From the NCBI GenBank assembly GCA_965198175.1, contig OZ240245.1, positions 2,365,382 through 2,429,381 on the forward strand: a stretch of 64,000 nucleotides of DNA. The letters run 5' to 3'. The notes below the pieces were generated by a model that saw only the letters and a list, made by a program, of their open reading frames with translations, had not been told where the DNA came from and searched no databases. The translations under genes were made by a program, and so were the position numbers. The stretch comes from Candidatus Poribacteria bacterium (lineage in GTDB: Bacteria; Poribacteria; WGA-4E; PCPOR2b). Below, piece after piece: positions 6,679 through 35,083 of this stretch. Positions within the stretch are counted from its first letter, which is position 1. Each line of letters starts with the position of its first letter.

Positions 6679-8315
6679 TGATGCATAATGAACAACTAGC
6701 GGGGACATCCAACACGCTGGATTTGGTAGAGCGGGCTGGATATGCGATTAACGCGATGACGCAAAGCACTAATCCGGAAGCGGAGTATGCGGTCTACTTC
6801 ACCGGGGTTCTCCACCGCAATCCGCCAACCCTGTTGAGGGAAATCCCGCTGTATGGCAAATTCATGGAAGGGCTGGCGTTAATGCGCATCATGACAAACG
6901 GCGAATTCGACACACGCCCATCTACTCAACCGAAGGATTTCAATCGGCACGTAGACAAAATTTGGCGTGAAGCGTTTCTACGCAAGCTTAACGGACAGGA
7001 ACTCGGACTAATTGGCGCCGAAGGCGGCAGGCAACTCGCTTGGCTGGCGATACAGTATCGGCAGACCAAAGACTCAATGTGGAAAGAACTCGGCGACTCA
7101 GTGATTCAACAGGCGCTCGAAACGACTATCCATCAAGATGACTACTGCTATTTCCCCCAAGACTCGGAAGGCACAATGCCGTGGAGATGGGGGGCAACCT
7201 ATCAGGGGTGGACGCTTCAAGGCGTGACCCAGTATTATATTGCGACCGGCTCTGAAGCAGCTCTGGAACTCGCGGGCAAACTCGCTCGCTACTTGAAGGA
7301 TCACTCCGGTATTTTTGATACCAACGGGCGGTTTCTTGCACGTCACGACGTAGATGCGCCGCTCAACCCGCCGACTACTCTCGGACCAGCGCTGCATTTC
7401 CATCACAACGGCAATGCGATGGAAGCGCTCTCGGAGTATGCGTGGGCGAGCGGCGAAACGGAATTTGGCGAGTTCGCGAAGAAATGCTATGAATACGCGT
7501 GTTCGCTCCCCGACTCGTCACCGCTTATCGGCTTTTTCCAAGAGTACATTGACGATTGGCCCGACCATCGCGGAGTAATAGACTGTGAAACCTGTTGTGT
7601 CGTTGACATGCTCCTCACAGCGCTTTGGATGACGAAGGCGGGTGTGGGCGATTATTGGGATGATATCGACCGCTACTTGAGAAACCAGTTCGCCGAGATG
7701 CAGATGACCTCCGGCGATTGGCTGGTTCGAATGAGTGAGGAATTACCATATCGGCCGCCGGGGGAGGATGAGGTTGCGATGGGGTCGCCGGACCGTTGGG
7801 TCGGCACCTTCGCCGGGTGGGCGACTGCGAATGACTTCTTCGCTATCGGTGCGGGTCCCGGCATCATGCACTGCTGCACCGGCAACGGGTCACGGGCGCT
7901 ATACTACCTCTGGGAGAACATGCTTGAGTTCAACAACGGGGAGTTACAACTGCATTTACTTCTCAACCGGAAGTCACCCTGGGCAGAGGTCATCAGTTAC
8001 GTCCCGTATCAAGGGAAAGTTGCGTTGAAGGTCAAGGAGGCGTGTGAGAATATTGCGGTGCGAGTACCCGACTGGGTCGAGAGTTCGAGCCTGTCATGCC
8101 TAGTCAACGGCGTCTCCTGCATGCCCAGTTGGAACGGTCGCTATGTGAACATCGGCAGAGCATCGCCCGGAGATACGGTTGAACTCGCGTTTCCGATTTC
8201 GGAACGGACGGTTGAGGAAACGGTGGGCGGCGTTCAATATACGCTTGTGATTAGAGGAAACAACGTAATTTCCATCTCACCACCGGGAAAGAATTATCCC
8301 TTCTATGACCGATGA
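6679..8315 (+). CDS. conserved hypothetical protein, paralog A (CETCC motif)
   Basis: Start placed at ATGATG preceded by AGGAGGAGGAACCA (strong RBS); the six-frame ORF extends upstream to 6483. About 80% identical to paralog B at 8938..10582. Motifs HFHHNGNAMEAL and DCETCCVVDML suggest a possible metal site. Confidence 0.55.
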
Positions 8316-19170: not shown

Positions 19171-19995
19171 ATGCAGACTTATACATCCGATCAACCCAAG
19201 AAATTCGACCTAGCTACAAAGATTCTCGCCAACGAGCAGGTCGCCCAAGATCACTATCTGCTGCGCTGTGTATGCCCTGAGATTGCAGAGAGCGCGCTGC
19301 CCGGTCAATTTATCCACGTCCTGATTTCGCAGGGGCCCGCACTGCTGCTTCGCCGTCCATTCACAATCTACACCGTTGAAGGCGATCAGTTTACGATTCT
19401 TTACCAGCTTATCGGCGCAGGAACGGAGATGCTGTCTCACCTCCGTTGTGGCAATCTGCTTCGTGTGATGGGACCTCTTGGAAATACCTTCCGTATCCCA
19501 CCGAATCTGGATCCAGCGATTATCGTTGGCGGCGGTGCCGGAATCGCATCGTTGCTGCTGCATGCCGTTGCCTTGCGAAAGCTGGGCGTGCGCACCCTAG
19601 GGCTGGTTGGATCGGTCAACTCTGCTCGACTGTTGACCGTTGCGGATTTGGAGGAAATTGGCGTTGAAACGCACATTTCGACAGATGACGGCAGCGTTAG
19701 GCATCATGGATTTGTTACGGAGGTTCTCACACAGATTTTGGAACAACCGCAAGCCTATGAACTGCACAATCCTGTTATCTACGCCTGTGGTCCTCACGGT
19801 ATGCTTCGCGCCGTGACGAAGATTTCGCAAGCGTACGGTGTTCCCACGCAACTGGCGATGGAGAATCGGATGGGCTGTGCGATGGGAGTCTGTCTCGGCT
19901 GCGTGTGCAAAATTCGCACGCCGCATGGCGGGATTGAGTATCAACGCGTGTGTACAGAAGGGCCTGTGTTTGATGCGGAGGACATCGTTTGGTGA
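19171..19995 (+). CDS. pyrK: dihydroorotate dehydrogenase electron-transfer subunit
   Basis: FNR-like FAD/NAD domains plus a C-terminal Cys cluster, CAMGVCLGCVC...C, for a 2Fe-2S centre. Immediately upstream of pyrD. Confidence 0.8.
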   Translation: MQTYTSDQPKKFDLATKILANEQVAQDHYLLRCVCPEIAESALPGQFIHVLISQGPALLLRRPFTIYTVEGDQFTILYQLIGAGTEMLSHLRCGNLLRVMGPLGNTFRIPPNLDPAIIVGGGAGIASLLLHAVALRKLGVRTLGLVGSVNSARLLTVADLEEIGVETHISTDDGSVRHHGFVTEVLTQILEQPQAYELHNPVIYACGPHGMLRAVTKISQAYGVPTQLAMENRMGCAMGVCLGCVCKIRTPHGGIEYQRVCTEGPVFDAEDIVW

Positions 19996-20074: not shown

Positions 20075-20998
20075 ATGGATAGCAACTCACCTTCTCTTGA
20101 AACTCATGTCGCGGGCATCCGAATGAAAAACCCTGTCATGACGGCATCGGGGACATTTGGCTACGGCAGCGAATACGCGGACTTCATCGATCTGAATCAG
20201 CTCGGCGCAACGGTTGTCAAAGGCATTACGAACGTGCCTTGGCCCGGTAACCCAATGCAACGGATTGCCGAAACGCCATCAGGGATGCTCAATGCAATCG
20301 GTTTGCAGAACGTCGGTGTCGACGGCTTCATTGAAAAAAAGCTTCCCTATCTCCGAAACTTCGACGTCCCCGTTATAGTAAATATCTGCGGTGAGCGGCT
20401 AGAAGAGTACGAAGAAGTCACAGAAAAACTGGATGGCACTGATGGGGTTGCAGCGATAGAACTCAACATCTCCTGTCCTAACCTCCACTGCGGCGGGATG
20501 AGTTTTGGAGTCGATCCCAAATTAACCAATCAACTTGTCAGCGCGGCGCGAGAAAAAACCGCATTGCCGCTGCTCGTGAAGCTTTCACCGAACGTCACAG
20601 ACATAACTGTCATTGCTTCTGCCGCAGCGGATGCCGGCGCAGACGGACTTTCCGTAATCAACACGTTACTAGGTATGGCAATCGACATTAAAACAAGACG
20701 ACCAATGCTTGAGAATGTCACTGGGGGGCTTTCTGGACCGGCGATTAAGCCGATTGCGTTACGCATGGTCTGGCAAGTCTACAATACCGTTAAGATACCA
20801 ATTATCGGCATGGGCGGCATCATGACCCGCGATGACGCGATTGAGTTTTTCATTGCGGGTGCTTCCGCGGTTGCGGTAGGAACAGCCAACTTCGTCAATC
20901 CACGAGCCCCCTTGGACATAATTGACGGCATTCGTGAATATCTGGATCAAAACGGGATTAATTCGATTGAGGAATTGGTGGGTAGCTTGCAAACGTGA
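20075..20998 (+). CDS. pyrD: dihydroorotate dehydrogenase catalytic subunit (class 1B)
   Basis: TIM-barrel DHOD motifs ([25 protein letters not shown]). 307 aa. Confidence 0.85.
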
Positions 20999-21049: not shown

Positions 21050-22129
21050 ATGCGGCATTTGATAACGCTTGATGACTTCTCGAATTTTGAGATTCAACAA
21101 ATCTTTCGGCTAGCGGATCAGATGCGGACTCAGTTGGCAACGTGGTCGGGTTTCTGCAAAGGGAAATTGCTGGCAACGCTATTTTACGAGCCGAGCACGC
21201 GGACCCGCCTCTCGTTTGAAAGTGCAGTGGAACGGCTCGACGGGCGAGCAATCGGTTTTTCCGATCCGCACGCTGCATCCGTTGCCAAAGGTGAAACCAT
21301 CGCCGATACGGTTCGCATGGTCGCCAACTATTCAGATCTCATCGTCGTGCGCCACAATTGGGCGGGATCGGCGCGAGTCATGGCATGTTATTCCACCGTC
21401 CCAGTCATCAACGGCGGGGATGGCAGCCATTGCCACCCCACGCAGGCGCTCACAGATTTGTACACCATCCTTCAACGTAAAGGAGGTATAGAAGGCGTAA
21501 GGGTTGGTATCTGTGGCGATTTGCGATACGGCAGGTCTGCTCATTCGCTTGCGCTTGGCGTGGCACGATTCGGTGGAAGGCTGGTCCACATTGCCCCCGA
21601 CAGTTTTCAGATGCCTGAATGGGTTCTGGTGCAGTTGAAACATCTTTACGATCAGGAACCAATTGAGAGCTGTCAACTCAGCGATGTGATTGGTGAGCTT
21701 GATGTCATCTATGTCAATCGGCTTCAGCAGGAACGTCTGCCGCCAGAAATTGATCGAGAAGCGGCTAGTAGAAGTTATCTTGTGAACGCTGCGGTGATGA
21801 GCGGGGCTAAACCCGATGCAATTATCATGCACCCGCTACCGCGTGTTAACGAGCTGGCTTATGAATTAGACGCGGACGCACGCGCCGCTTATTTTGAACA
21901 GTCTGCGAACGGAGTTCCCATTCGGATGGCGCTGATTGCCAGTCTGTTAGGACTTGAACAGTTAATTTTGACCCAACCGCCAGAGCGAAGGATCATATCT
22001 GAGAATCGACCCTGTGAAAATCCAAACTGTGTCACCGCTCATGAGCGCTATCTGGAACCTGAAACGGAGATTATCACCGATGATTCGCTGATTACGGCGT
22101 GTGCTTATTGTGGCGACATCAAACGTTAA
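21050..22129 (+). CDS. pyrB: aspartate carbamoyltransferase catalytic chain with a fused C-terminal PyrI-type zinc domain
   Basis: STRTR carbamoyl-phosphate motif and HPLP motif. The extra ~50 C-terminal residues, CENPNCVTAHE...CAYCGD, match the 4-Cys zinc domain of the ATCase regulatory chain. Confidence 0.8.
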   Translation: MRHLITLDDFSNFEIQQIFRLADQMRTQLATWSGFCKGKLLATLFYEPSTRTRLSFESAVERLDGRAIGFSDPHAASVAKGETIADTVRMVANYSDLIVVRHNWAGSARVMACYSTVPVINGGDGSHCHPTQALTDLYTILQRKGGIEGVRVGICGDLRYGRSAHSLALGVARFGGRLVHIAPDSFQMPEWVLVQLKHLYDQEPIESCQLSDVIGELDVIYVNRLQQERLPPEIDREAASRSYLVNAAVMSGAKPDAIIMHPLPRVNELAYELDADARAAYFEQSANGVPIRMALIASLLGLEQLILTQPPERRIISENRPCENPNCVTAHERYLEPETEIITDDSLITACAYCGDIKR

Positions 22130-22162: not shown

Positions 22163-23599
22163 ATGAACCGTGTTTTTGAAAATACATCCGCGCTCTTTAT
22201 CGCCCAACTGATTGGTCGCCTCCTGTCGTTTGGCTTGATGGTTGTCCTGATGCCTCGCTATTTCACAGAGGAGGCGTTGGGAGGCTACATCACGGCGATG
22301 TCCCTGACCAATATGATTGCCGCCATTGCTGAATTGGGTATGCAATCCCCTCTGATTCGTGAGATGGCACTGCATCGCCGGCAAGCGCGCCATTTCTTGG
22401 GAAATGCGCTCATAATAAGATTTCTCTTGTCGATCATTGCTTTTGGGTTGATGGTTGGAATCGGCTATTGGCGTTATCAGCCAATCATTGTTCGGATGAT
22501 TCTCCTGCTCGGTTTATCGGACATCATTAACTCAACCGCTCAACTCTTTCGGTTTGTCTTTCGTGCATTTGAACGGATGAGATATGAGGCGTTCACGGTG
22601 GTGGTGGAACGCTCCCTAGTTGTTTTCGTTGGAGGAGCGCTCATTTTCTTGGGAATAGACCTTGTTAATTTCTGCGTTGTTGTGTTGATTGCGAGCATTT
22701 TCAACCTCGCCCTCAGTGTCGGAATTGTTGCCAGAAGATTCATGTCTCTTCGATTCCGTGCCGATCTGGGGATTTGGAAGGCGCTTATGCACCAAGCATT
22801 GCCCTTTGCGCTCGGCAATATCTGCAACCAAATCTATTTTCGAATCGACACGGTCCTACTCCCCATTTTAAGCTCACATGGGGTTACTGCTAACGCTTGG
22901 TACGGTCTAGCGTATCAACTGGTGAATGCTTTCACGATTCTCCCAGGTGCATTTATGGGAGCGATGTTTCCTGTGATGGCGCGGACCTTTGCGAATAAGA
23001 GGATGGATTTTAGCAGCATATACACCGACGCACTGCGATGGATGTTTTTGGTGGGCGTGCCCTTTGCTGTCGGGATGGCGACTTTGTCCGAAAAAATATC
23101 GTCTGCCCTTTTCTCGCATTATGAATGGGTAGAAATTGCCCCCGCCTTGCGTCTGCTGAGTTGGTCTGGGGGGTTGAGTTTCTTAACGACGGTCGTAATC
23201 ACAGTGCTTCGGGCAACTGACAAACGTCGTTCTTTTCCAATTTTAATGGCGACGACAGCACTTCTCAACATTGCATTGAACTTTATCCTCATCCCCCGCT
23301 TTAGCCATGTCGGCGCAGCCATGGCGATGATTGTCAGCGAGGTTTACTTATTTATCGGCAGTTTTATTTATATTTCTCAGCGAATCTCGAAATTAACCTA
23401 CATCAGATTTGCAATCAAAACCGTTATCGTCTCCGCGCTGATGGGTGCAGCCTTAATGTTCCTTCGAGACCGCTTTTCCATCTGGCTATTGATTCCGTGT
23501 GCGATTTTATTTTATCTTGCTGGAATGGCTGCCGTTGGCGAACTCAAACGGGGTAAAATCCCAAAAAGCATAGAGCTCAAAGATGAATCGTCTTTTTAA
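22163..23599 (+). CDS. MOP-superfamily oligosaccharide flippase (Wzx/MurJ-like)
   Basis: 478 aa, about 14 TM helices, with the typical polysaccharide-biosynthesis-protein layout. Confidence 0.55.
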   Translation: MNRVFENTSALFIAQLIGRLLSFGLMVVLMPRYFTEEALGGYITAMSLTNMIAAIAELGMQSPLIREMALHRRQARHFLGNALIIRFLLSIIAFGLMVGIGYWRYQPIIVRMILLLGLSDIINSTAQLFRFVFRAFERMRYEAFTVVVERSLVVFVGGALIFLGIDLVNFCVVVLIASIFNLALSVGIVARRFMSLRFRADLGIWKALMHQALPFALGNICNQIYFRIDTVLLPILSSHGVTANAWYGLAYQLVNAFTILPGAFMGAMFPVMARTFANKRMDFSSIYTDALRWMFLVGVPFAVGMATLSEKISSALFSHYEWVEIAPALRLLSWSGGLSFLTTVVITVLRATDKRRSFPILMATTALLNIALNFILIPRFSHVGAAMAMIVSEVYLFIGSFIYISQRISKLTYIRFAIKTVIVSALMGAALMFLRDRFSIWLLIPCAILFYLAGMAAVGELKRGKIPKSIELKDESSF

Positions 23600-23608
23600 T
23601 CGACTTTT

Positions 23609-24121
23609 TTAAGATGACATTTCTTCTCCTGTTTCCCTGCGAATTTCAAACGTCTGTATCACTTCATTTGCTAGAAGTCGCTGGGCGATTGTTTCCAGCT
23701 TTGCTCGATCTAAATCGCCTTGTAGCCAGTATTTTTTTCCGGTCTGTGCGGACTGAACGTCTGATGTACCTGGGTCACGAACTCCTTTAAGGACGCTATC
23801 GGCAACCGCATCTGTCACACCAGCCTTAAATCGAATTTCAATTGTCCAGGTGTCAATCAAACGTGCTGAACGAACGCCTTGCACTGGCGTGTCATTATTG
23901 AATTCCCGGTAAACATAACGCTGCGTTACCGGATCGGCGAGGAGAACTGTACAGATACGTTCTACTGTGTGAGAATCGATCTTACCTTCAATCCAATAAA
24001 TTTGCGCGGTACGAACGGAGGTAACACCAACGACGCCCAAATCAGCGATATCCTCAAGGATGCCTTGCCCAATAACATCCGGTGTTTCAGATTTGTAGCT
24101 AACTTCAATCTTCCATCTCAA
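23609..24121 (-). CDS. purS: tandem-domain PurS (phosphoribosylformylglycinamidine synthase subunit PurS x2)
   Basis: 170 aa made of two ~80-aa PurS-like halves (MRWKIEVSYK...ADPVTQRY and TWTIEIRFKAG...LANEVIQTFEI). Confidence 0.5.
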   Translation of the reverse strand: MRWKIEVSYKSETPDVIGQGILEDIADLGVVGVTSVRTAQIYWIEGKIDSHTVERICTVLLADPVTQRYVYREFNNDTPVQGVRSARLIDTWTIEIRFKAGVTDAVADSVLKGVRDPGTSDVQSAQTGKKYWLQGDLDRAKLETIAQRLLANEVIQTFEIRRETGEEMSS

Positions 24122-24213: not shown

Positions 24214-24468
24214 GTGCCGACTGAAAAAGCTAACGCTCGAATGCTAATGATTATTGTCAGCGTGATTGGACTGATATTTGCCATCGTTATGGTTATTCTG
24301 TTCTTCAACGCAGCCCCCGCGCTTTCTAAGCTACGAGAGCATCAAACGTACACGGACGCCTCTGCGTGTTTGAAGTGTCACTTGACTGGTGATGAACAAT
24401 CGCCAACCATGCCCCACCTCAATATTGGCGGCTGTCATCTCTGCCACAAACTAGCCAAGGGGGAATAG
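24214..24468 (+). CDS. membrane-anchored di-heme c-type cytochrome
   Basis: 84 aa. One N-terminal TM helix. Two CxxCH motifs (CLKCH, CHLCH). Confidence 0.5.
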   Translation: MPTEKANARMLMIIVSVIGLIFAIVMVILFFNAAPALSKLREHQTYTDASACLKCHLTGDEQSPTMPHLNIGGCHLCHKLAKGE

Positions 24469-34000: not shown

Positions 34001-34273
34001 ATGGCAGCAGGTCCATCCTGCCCCTAGTATCTGCGCTTCTTCGTAAAGAATACTGGGCCCACAGGTTATCCAGAGCGAATAAACTCAAATAAGTCAGGTG
34101 CTGTATTCATGCGACGCGGAGTAGTTTAGATTTTGCTTTCTGTTTTTTGTCATACGTGCTAGAATAGTCACCGAAGCATAATAACCTTCAGATTGGCTTC
34201 ACACGCCGGGTTGCTACAATCCATGCAACCTCTCACAGTTTTCTGAGGAAATTCAACAAGGAGGTGTACTAAA

Positions 34274-35083
34274 GTGAAAGCCGCATTTAGGAAACTAACC
34301 CTCGTATGCGTAAGTTCTAGTTTTCTTGGGCTGATAATCGCAAGCCCAAGTTATTCCAAAATTAACTCAGAAACCATCGTCGGAATCTGGTTACTTGATG
34401 AAGGTCAAGGAGATATAGCAAAAGACGCTTCTGGCAACGGCCATGATGGAGAGTTCATCGGTTTAAACCCTCAATGGGTAAAAGGCAAGTTCGGCAGGGC
34501 GTTTGAATTTGACGGACAGGATGATTCTGTCCTATTTAATGCCAAAGAACGTCCCGAACACGCTTTTATATTTCATCAGCCGACCGACGCGACATTCCTG
34601 TTTTGGGTGAAAAGACTCACGTTACCTCATGTTGCGATATTCTGGACGAGAGGGGATAACTCCGATAACGGTAGATTTAATGTCTATGCGGGCGCAGGTG
34701 AAAATTTTGGCTTCACTTACAAAGCTGATGATGGAACACCACATGGGATTTTTTCTCGCACAGTTGAACTCCCTTTAAAGGAATGGACGCACTTAGCAAT
34801 AACACGGGAAGGCAATACCTATGTTGCTTACAAAGATGGAATTATAGCGGACGAAACCGTTGATCCAGAACCAGACCTGCCCACAGCTAAAAGATGGATC
34901 GCTTCGGGCAGAGATGGTTTTCTTTTCAACGGCATCCTCGACGAAATTGCCGCGTTCAATGCCGTCCTGAGTGAAGAGGATATTAACAGGATCATGAATG
35001 ATGGACTTGAGAAATCAGCGCTCACTGTTTCCTTGGCTGGGAAACTGACGACAATTTGGGGACAAATAAAGCACGTGGAATAA
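34274..35083 (+). CDS. secreted LamG (concanavalin-A-like lectin) domain protein, array member 1
   Basis: GTG start after AAGGAGG. Signal peptide. LamG_3-like motifs (DASGNGHDGEF, KGKFGRAFEFDGQDDSV, WTHLAITREG, ILDEIAAFNAVLSEEDI). Confidence 0.6.
   Translation: MKAAFRKLTLVCVSSSFLGLIIASPSYSKINSETIVGIWLLDEGQGDIAKDASGNGHDGEFIGLNPQWVKGKFGRAFEFDGQDDSVLFNAKERPEHAFIFHQPTDATFLFWVKRLTLPHVAIFWTRGDNSDNGRFNVYAGAGENFGFTYKADDGTPHGIFSRTVELPLKEWTHLAITREGNTYVAYKDGIIADETVDPEPDLPTAKRWIASGRDGFLFNGILDEIAAFNAVLSEEDINRIMNDGLEKSALTVSLAGKLTTIWGQIKHVE

Follow-up and report, generated by a model that had tools for sequence, protein, structure and literature searches.

Aspartate carbamoyltransferase (ATCase) is a textbook allosteric enzyme. 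Its bacterial forms occur with dihydroorotase (DHOase), with PyrI, or as bare trimers (PMC4581275, PMC6022934), and the same reviews list classes A, B ('fused or unfused') and C alone. In class B, the zinc domain of the regulatory chain PyrI binds the catalytic chain PyrB, and the allosteric domain of PyrI binds nucleotides and dimerises, tying two trimers into c6r6 (c, catalytic chain; r, regulatory chain) (PMC13168310; PMC4581275). Here, we describe a gene of a Candidatus Poribacteria bacterium that encodes PyrB joined to a PyrI-type zinc domain, with the nucleotide-binding domain of PyrI missing. We call this architecture PyrB–Zn. The gene occupies 21050..22129 on the plus strand of a 64,000-nucleotide stretch of contig OZ240245.1 (hereafter, the window); genes and protein-coding regions of the window given below without a strand all lie on the plus strand.

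PyrB–Zn resembles the class B holoenzymes of Escherichia coli, Sulfolobus and Methanocaldococcus jannaschii (PyrB6-PyrI6) in its catalytic subfamily, in its four-Cys zinc domain and in having equivalents of the regulatory-chain residues N111r and N113r. It differs in that the zinc domain is attached covalently to the catalytic chain and the nucleotide-binding, dimerising domain is absent from both the protein and the window. Read from the genes, the dimerising domain by which three r2 dimers bridge the trimers of c6r6 is absent here. Thermotoga maritima has a fused PyrB-PyrI (Chen et al. 1998, as cited in PMC4581275 and PMC6022934). That enzyme likewise holds both materials in one polypeptide, with PyrB first, but it contains the whole of PyrI (allosteric and zinc domains), is about 525 aa long and is allosteric, whereas the window protein has 359 aa and the zinc domain only. 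The model for the Thermotoga-type fusion, NF009916 (525 aa), gave 96.9 bits against a cut-off of 800 and was matched at model positions 55-334 of 525.

The class C enzyme of Bacillus subtilis, a PyrB trimer, shares with PyrB–Zn a predicted state as an unregulated trimer without a nucleotide-binding subunit. However, class C has no accessory domain, whereas a conserved 46-residue zinc domain is attached here. The best functional analogue is an engineered complex. Markby, Zhou and Schachman (PNAS 1991) reportedly found that the isolated 70-residue zinc polypeptide of E. coli PyrI binds c3 tightly and changes its kinetics, and Zhou et al. (Protein Sci 1994) are said to have also worked on this engineered c3–zinc polypeptide complex. 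It contains the same parts, namely catalytic chains and zinc domains without allosteric domains. It is non-covalent and man-made, whereas PyrB–Zn is natural, conserved and covalent and has its own linker. By this analogy, PyrB–Zn would be the natural counterpart of the engineered complex.

Catalytic chain and zinc domain in one polypeptide

The gene is an open reading frame (ORF) of 359 aa plus stop that, as read from the window DNA, starts with ATG and ends with TAA. A GAGG Shine-Dalgarno-like box lies 6 nt 5' of the ATG. The ORF encodes a PyrB catalytic chain, a linker and a PyrI-type zinc domain. Its catalytic part consists of a carbamoyl-phosphate-binding domain (residues 2-141, 21053..21472; Pfam OTCace_N, E 1.6e-47) and an aspartate-binding domain with the C-terminal helix (residues 148-298, 21491..21943; Pfam OTCace, E 1.8e-25; helix 281-299 in the structure model described below). 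TIGR00670, the NCBIfam ATCase equivalog model, scored 306.1 bits against a cut-off of 236.95, and NF002032 scored 289.1 bits against 263. The STRTR (49-53) and HPLP (261-264) motifs, by which an earlier note on this DNA had recognised a catalytic chain, were both present and were invariant in 108 family members. By homology, residues 2-298 are an ordinary ATCase catalytic chain and a bona fide PyrB.

The closest solved relatives of the protein were PyrI-partnered ATCases: Pyrococcus abyssi (1ml4, E 4e-84), followed by M. jannaschii (2rgw), Sulfolobus (1pg5) and E. coli (1d09). The class C chain of B. subtilis (2at2/3r7d) was far behind, at E 1e-38. Judged by these relationships, the catalytic chain is of the PyrI-associating type (class B, archaeal/enterobacterial-like). 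The transcarbamoylase fold was present, and fold searches matched the catalytic body only; in the fold and structure searches, the fused tail was absent from every solved chain.

The catalytic chain runs uninterrupted and in frame, through a 23-residue linker, into a four-Cys module (C322, C327, C351, C354). The tail reads ...GLEQLILTQPPERRIISENRP-C322-ENPN-C327-VTAHERYLEPETEIITDDSLITA-C351-AY-C354-GDIKR. Between C327 and C351 the spacing is 23 residues, identical to that from C114 to C138 in E. coli; the spacer that the earlier note gave as 25 residues, between CENPNCVTAHE and CAYCGD, is actually 18 residues long. The predicted zinc-binding core, C322-x4-C327...C351-x2-C354 with N324 and N326, occupies 22013..22111. 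It lies within the stretch (residues 314-359, 21989..22126) that hhalign, Pfam and Protein Data Bank (PDB) profile matches identify as homologous to the zinc domain of PyrI.

Several comparisons bear on the identity of this tail. Pfam PyrI_C (PF02748) matched residues 322-356 with 26.0 bits (gathering cut-off 23.4, E 8e-6). We built a profile from 12 diverse tails and ran it against all PDB chains. The top 12 matches were all PyrI regulatory chains, led by M. jannaschii 2yww (E 2.8e-5), Sulfolobus 1pg5_B (1e-3) and E. coli 1d09_B (3.7e-3), and the Cys motifs lined up in all four displayed alignments. Against 1.84 billion representative proteins, the same profile recovered canonical full-length PyrI. 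With hhalign, it aligned to 17 canonical PyrI over 43 columns, non-Cys residues among them, at a probability of 96.8% and E 2.2e-10, pairing window residues 314-359 with E. coli PyrI residues 101-146. The fused piece therefore starts where the allosteric domain of PyrI gives way to the zinc domain (E. coli r-chain residue 101), and it lacks the last ~7 r-chain residues. By homology, the tail is a PyrI-type four-Cys zinc domain, as the earlier note had proposed.

An unrelated Cys-rich zinc ribbon that resembles PyrI by chance would be conceivable for so short a tail (~46 residues), as CxxC-type knuckles are common and weak, unrelated non-PyrI matches in the PDB begin at E >0.2. Against this stand the PyrI_C match above gathering, the 12 best PDB matches, the hhalign alignment and the recovery of canonical PyrI, and we consider a chance resemblance extremely unlikely. 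The four Cys, which are invariant and have the spacing seen in PyrI, are predicted to bind zinc in a tetrahedral Zn(Cys)4 site.

No match to the PyrI nucleotide-binding domain (PF01948) was found within the fused protein. A PyrI hidden Markov model (HMM) run without filters on all six frames of the 64-kb window found the tail alone (model positions 103-141) and nothing at positions 1-100. Whole-PyrI models scored below their cut-offs (NF002063, 20.9 against 171 bits; TIGR00240, 12.8 against 148.55 bits). In a Pfam scan of the window, the gene 3' of the fused pyrB was flippase-like and not pyrI. The absence of the allosteric domain and of a following pyrI, both noticed earlier, thus held at this locus. 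Elsewhere in the window, a second C-x4-C...C-x2-C motif match (7485..7595) and a weak match to the PyrI HMM (34350..34171) were judged to be chance matches.

We modelled the protein as a monomer with AlphaFold2 (AF2) from a 108-sequence family alignment. The mean predicted local distance difference test (pLDDT) score was 83.7, and the predicted template modelling (pTM) score was 0.86. The pLDDT was 85-87 in the linker and 81-91 in the tail, which was beta-rich with short strands at 315-317, 338-343 and 348-351. The structure prediction that the earlier note had suggested as a check thus returned a confident beta-rich module, and the homology of the tail to PyrI in sequence was significant. Since a floppy appendage would normally score low, the model fits a linker and tail docked on the body rather than floppy. 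The only segment with pLDDT below 50 was residues 45-76 (21182-21277), the STRTR and 80s-loop region. The low score probably reflects the modelling of a single chain, because in known ATCases the adjacent chain of the trimer completes and orders this region.

Conservation and taxonomic distribution

The 120 best whole-protein homologues were 54-92% identical to the window protein and nearly all 354-365 aa long, and all of those with a named source came from Candidatus Poribacteria. Every full-length member kept the zinc tail, and the four Cys stayed invariant across about 115 homologues of the Poribacteria clade. In the family alignment (108 sequences, 54-92% identity), the four Cys were invariant (108/108). 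Conservation reached 99% at N324 and 93% at N326. It was at least 93% at each of N324, E332, Y334, Y353 and G355 and at least 92% at all of E332, Y334, L335, E338, E340, Y353 and G355, with the positions between them varying freely. N324 and N326 are the counterparts of E. coli N111r and N113r, the substitution of which abolishes c-r communication (Eisenstein et al. 1989, as cited in bioRxiv 10.1101/662718). The linker (residues 299-321, 21944..22012), delimited by column conservation and pLDDT, has two parts. Column conservation was 0.89 in the first part, LLGLEQLILTQPP (299-311), 0.83-0.88 in the catalytic domains and 0.41 in linker residues 312-321.

Invariant Cys and conserved positions amid variable ones point to a folded, selected domain. 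The alignment shows that the tail is under strong purifying selection, affecting the four Cys and the residues that correspond to those contacting the catalytic chain in E. coli. This bears on the possibility that the tail is functionless, left over from a deleted pyrI and still to decay. A deletion within the pyrBI operon is the simplest origin of the fusion, and some copies of the fused gene in gut Clostridia are interrupted, as a remnant might be. However, four invariant Cys and about 10 more positions conserved at 92% or above, across 108 sequences down to 54% identity, are a strong argument against a functionless tail. The constrained linker length, the confident AF2 fold and the presence of the architecture in at least 109 further species, probably with more than one origin, argue in the same direction. 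We regard a remnant as very unlikely.

For occurrence beyond Poribacteria, one genome per GTDB species was scanned at the DNA level, using a degenerate pattern that encodes C-x-N-P-x-C-[IV]-T-x2-E-x-Y-[LF], which gave at least 119 loci. In at least 109 of them, the motif stood at the C-terminus of a PyrB-sized frame with HPLPR upstream (98 complete, 11 ended by the locus edge). The remaining loci among the matches listed were eight canonical PyrI (seven Bacteroidales, one Clostridia), one chance match and one that was too truncated. Among the matches listed, the fused genes were overwhelmingly from Oscillospiraceae and Ruminococcaceae, with a Poribacteria genome, an Armatimonadia metagenome-assembled genome (MAG) and a few others as further carriers. 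Cultured carriers were Pseudoflavonifractor phocaeensis An507, P. capillosus An386a, Ruminococcus flavefaciens SAb67, Ruminococcus spp. YE71 and YRD2003, and Clostridium sp. D33t1. The fusion is also carried by the Poribacteria contigs CBDHDL010000021.1 (4.8 Mb) and ERZ25072076 ctg246108 (6.35 Mb) and by the closed MAG chromosomes OY776214.1 and CP181261.1. Gut and rumen Clostridia account for at least 100 of the species with the architecture. The linker was 14-16 residues long in 88 of the 109 fused genes listed from other genomes, and their tails typically ended in C-E-Y-C-D-E-R plus 3-5 residues. The earlier note had taken the fusion to imply altered regulation or assembly of ATCase. That reading is supported, but as the property of a whole conserved and taxonomically widespread enzyme class rather than of one gene.

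The tail profile also matched many C-terminal pieces of PyrB that clearly belonged to other lineages, and a profile of such fragments gave named matches in Ruminococcus, Ruminiclostridium, Oscillospiraceae and Bacillota. We rejected the idea that short proteins made of a PyrB C-terminus and a zinc domain are a distinct protein, as at the DNA level they proved to be parts of single fused genes that frameshifts or a stop interrupt. In human-gut Clostridia contigs (L004:5474-6561, L005:5474-6561, L006:5473-6561 and L007:5340-6408), the fused gene was interrupted at a position that differed per sample. The frameshifts of L004 and L005 lay a few codons apart, L006 had an in-frame stop (TL*EEKGRL), and the frameshift of L007 was further downstream. 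These interruptions may reflect either a recurrent assembly error or independent pseudogenisation of pyrB within the lineage. A third flavour of PyrB–Zn was seen in the representative proteins P0130, P0144, P0153 and P0156 of metagenomic lineages, where an Arg/Pro/Lys-rich linker of ~40-60 residues runs from the last PyrB helix to the first Cys.

The distribution data also bear on whether nucleotide regulation is kept in trans, with a separate allosteric domain (a split PyrI) or another partner docking on the fused zinc domain to form a class B-like holoenzyme. Such a partner could be encoded anywhere in a genome of which the window is only 64 kb; the conserved hydrophobic linker segment LEQLILT could serve as its docking surface, and the H2 helices of the PyrI allosteric domain pack against its zinc domain (PMC13168310). 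On the other hand, the window contained no allosteric-domain match, and an HMM of the allosteric domain alone found nothing near any of the 109 fused genes listed (stretches of at most 8 kb each), whereas it detected the canonical PyrI in all eight canonical loci of the scan. In the related Poribacteria loci there was likewise no pyrI after the fused gene and no allosteric domain in the flanks. The pyrB gene lay directly upstream of pyrI in all six canonical loci with complete flanks, so that an unlinked partner would be unusual, and the fused tail lacks the end of the r-chain noted above. A profile search with the allosteric domain, for split or stand-alone PyrI in Poribacteria or Oscillospirales, gave listed matches dominated by Enterobacterial and Bacteroidales PyrI and carries no weight either way. 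Regulation by a partner in trans seems unlikely to us.

As for origin, an in-frame deletion in a pyrBI operon that removed the pyrB stop codon together with the nucleotide-binding domain of pyrI would most likely account for the fusion. In a crude neighbour-joining tree of catalytic cores, which had no support values and few outgroups and is suggestive only, the Clostridial fused clade was sister to the canonical PyrB of Clostridia and Bacteroidales, and the Poribacteria clade, together with P0146, an Armatimonadia sequence and L031, was placed elsewhere. Because the two fused clades sit apart, the tree suggests that the fusion arose at least twice independently. A canonical two-domain PyrI with the same C-x-N-P-x-C-[IV]-T-x2-E-x-Y-[LF] zinc knuckle as the fused forms was found in L061, an uncultured Clostridia MAG, and canonical PyrI of the same knuckle flavour occurred in the Bacteroidales loci L044, L055, L100, L101, L116, L117 and L123. 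By sequence resemblance, the fused zinc domain probably descends from this C-x-N-P-x-C-[IV]-T subtype of PyrI.

A probable trimer with zinc caps and its alternatives

The reading that we favour, and hold to be probable though well short of certain, is a catalytic trimer with built-in zinc caps at the canonical c:r interface and without nucleotide allostery. The zinc domain of PyrI is joined to the C-terminus of PyrB by a linker of ~15-23 residues, exactly at the former boundary of the allosteric domain. The tethered domain would bind Zn through its four Cys and use the canonical c:r interface to dock on a carbamoyl-phosphate domain, either that of the chain to which it belongs or that of an adjacent chain in the same trimer, to give a catalytic trimer carrying three zinc 'caps'. 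Without the allosteric domain, there would be no dimerisation, no r2-like bridge between trimers and no CTP/UTP/ATP site, and the enzyme would be a nucleotide-insensitive and probably non-cooperative trimer. The zinc cap would act as a permanent stabiliser and as a conformational modulator of the active-site region (130s loop).

Loss of the allosteric domain would take away both the effector site and the trimer bridge, so a trimer with caps is the most economical arrangement. The engineered complex of E. coli c3 with the zinc polypeptide (Markby, Zhou and Schachman 1991) reportedly shows such behaviour. The conserved linker length and the conserved residues 299-311 point to a constrained geometry and support it, as do the retained counterparts of N111r and N113r, which are interface residues. 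We infer the oligomeric state, zinc content and kinetics of this trimer from sequence.

Several points weigh against the capped trimer or limit its detail. The pLDDT is a local measure and is no proof of a canonical interface, and the monomer model is compatible with docking of the tail in cis or in trans as well as with no docking. The window covers ~1% of the genome, and a separate PyrI or allosteric-domain protein may be encoded elsewhere. In addition, the equivalents of E. coli E142r and K143r are not conserved in the Poribacteria tail (C-A-Y-C-G-x), whereas Clostridial forms keep C-E-Y-C-D-E-R. For this reason, the interface may differ in detail from the c:r interface of E. coli.

The tethered domain might instead reach across in trans and cross-brace two trimers into (c-Zn)6, in which aspartate cooperativity would be kept and nucleotide control lost. 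In class B, the zinc domain is the sole part of the r-chain that touches the catalytic chains (PMC13168310), and in the T state of E. coli it contacts both c1 and c4. A class B-type catalytic chain and a tightly conserved linker length, as found here, would both suit such a hexamer. In Clostridial tails the last Cys is also followed by D-E-R, an acidic-basic segment that matches E142r/K143r in position, and mutation of K143r is reported in bioRxiv 10.1101/662718 to destabilise the E. coli T state. Set against the hexamer, Poribacteria tails have no equivalents of E142 and K143, and without r:r dimers nothing is known to keep two trimers in register. The engineered c3–zinc polypeptide complex is also reported to be at the trimer level, with hyperbolic kinetics. 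We therefore consider a cross-braced hexamer rather unlikely. The E. coli T-state contacts E239c and D236c were dropped as an argument against it, as they are unconserved even in allosteric archaeal enzymes.

A more far-reaching proposal, to which we give a small chance, is that PyrB–Zn is a fourth natural bacterial ATCase class. Its zinc domain would either cross-brace trimers (c1-Zn to c4, a cooperative, nucleotide-blind hexamer) or be a zinc- or redox-sensitive Zn(Cys)4 switch on pyrimidine synthesis. The fusion seems to have at least two origins (Poribacteria-type and Oscillospirales-type), and the zinc domain would then have a function independent of nucleotide allostery.

A PyrB form that is natural and widespread and has retained the zinc half of PyrI alone stands outside the three-class scheme. 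It suggests that the zinc domain may have a value of its own, in stabilising the trimer or in setting the conformation of the 130s loop and active site. PyrB–Zn is also a ready-made system for separating the effects of r-chain binding from those of nucleotides, so far approached with engineered fragments only. Pyrimidine feedback control at the ATCase step is probably absent or different in Poribacteria, in gut and rumen Oscillospiraceae and in Ruminococcus. Pathway reconstructions would miss this, because the annotation of these proteins goes no further than 'aspartate carbamoyltransferase (catalytic subunit)'.

We found no description of a PyrB form with the zinc domain only in the literature searched, most subscription journals being outside its reach. 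Database proteins with precomputed PF02729, PF00185 and PF02748 were named merely 'aspartate carbamoyltransferase'. PyrB–Zn is thus uncharacterised rather than undiscovered, because its domain architecture is already visible in databases. It rearranges the domains of an enzyme that is understood very well, and it is real, conserved and widespread; its mechanism we infer.

Neighbouring genes and other observations

The fused gene is third in a co-directional cluster. The first gene is pyrK-like (19171..19995; dihydroorotate dehydrogenase B electron-transfer subunit; Pfam DHODB_Fe-S_bind, E 7e-15). It is followed by pyrD (20075..20998; dihydroorotate dehydrogenase; Pfam DHO_dh, E 2e-86), which ends 51 nt before pyrB, its stop and the spacing being read directly from the DNA. 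Downstream, at the place of pyrI in canonical pyrBI operons, lies a gene for a polysaccharide/MurJ-type flippase (22163..23599; Pfam Polysacc_synt, E 5e-24; MurJ, E 9e-15).

A pyrK gene was likewise found upstream in the Poribacteria relatives L002 and L003. In these loci (L002:2154-9080 and L003:3267-9080; PyrB–Zn 82% identical), a pterin-4a-carbinolamine dehydratase gene lies between pyrK and pyrD, and pyrD and pyrB are separated by transposase (DDE_Tnp_1) genes and an unknown ORF, whereas the window has a compact pyrK-pyrD-pyrB arrangement.

Two further genes of the window were of separate interest. On the minus strand, 23609-24121 encodes a 170-aa protein with two PurS matches, a tandem PurS-PurS fusion, whereas the usual PurS has ~80 aa. 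On the plus strand, 24214-24468 is an 84-aa ORF. Its product has a hydrophobic helix at the N-terminus as well as two CxxCH motifs (CLKCH and CHLCH) and looks like a small membrane-anchored dihaem c-type cytochrome.

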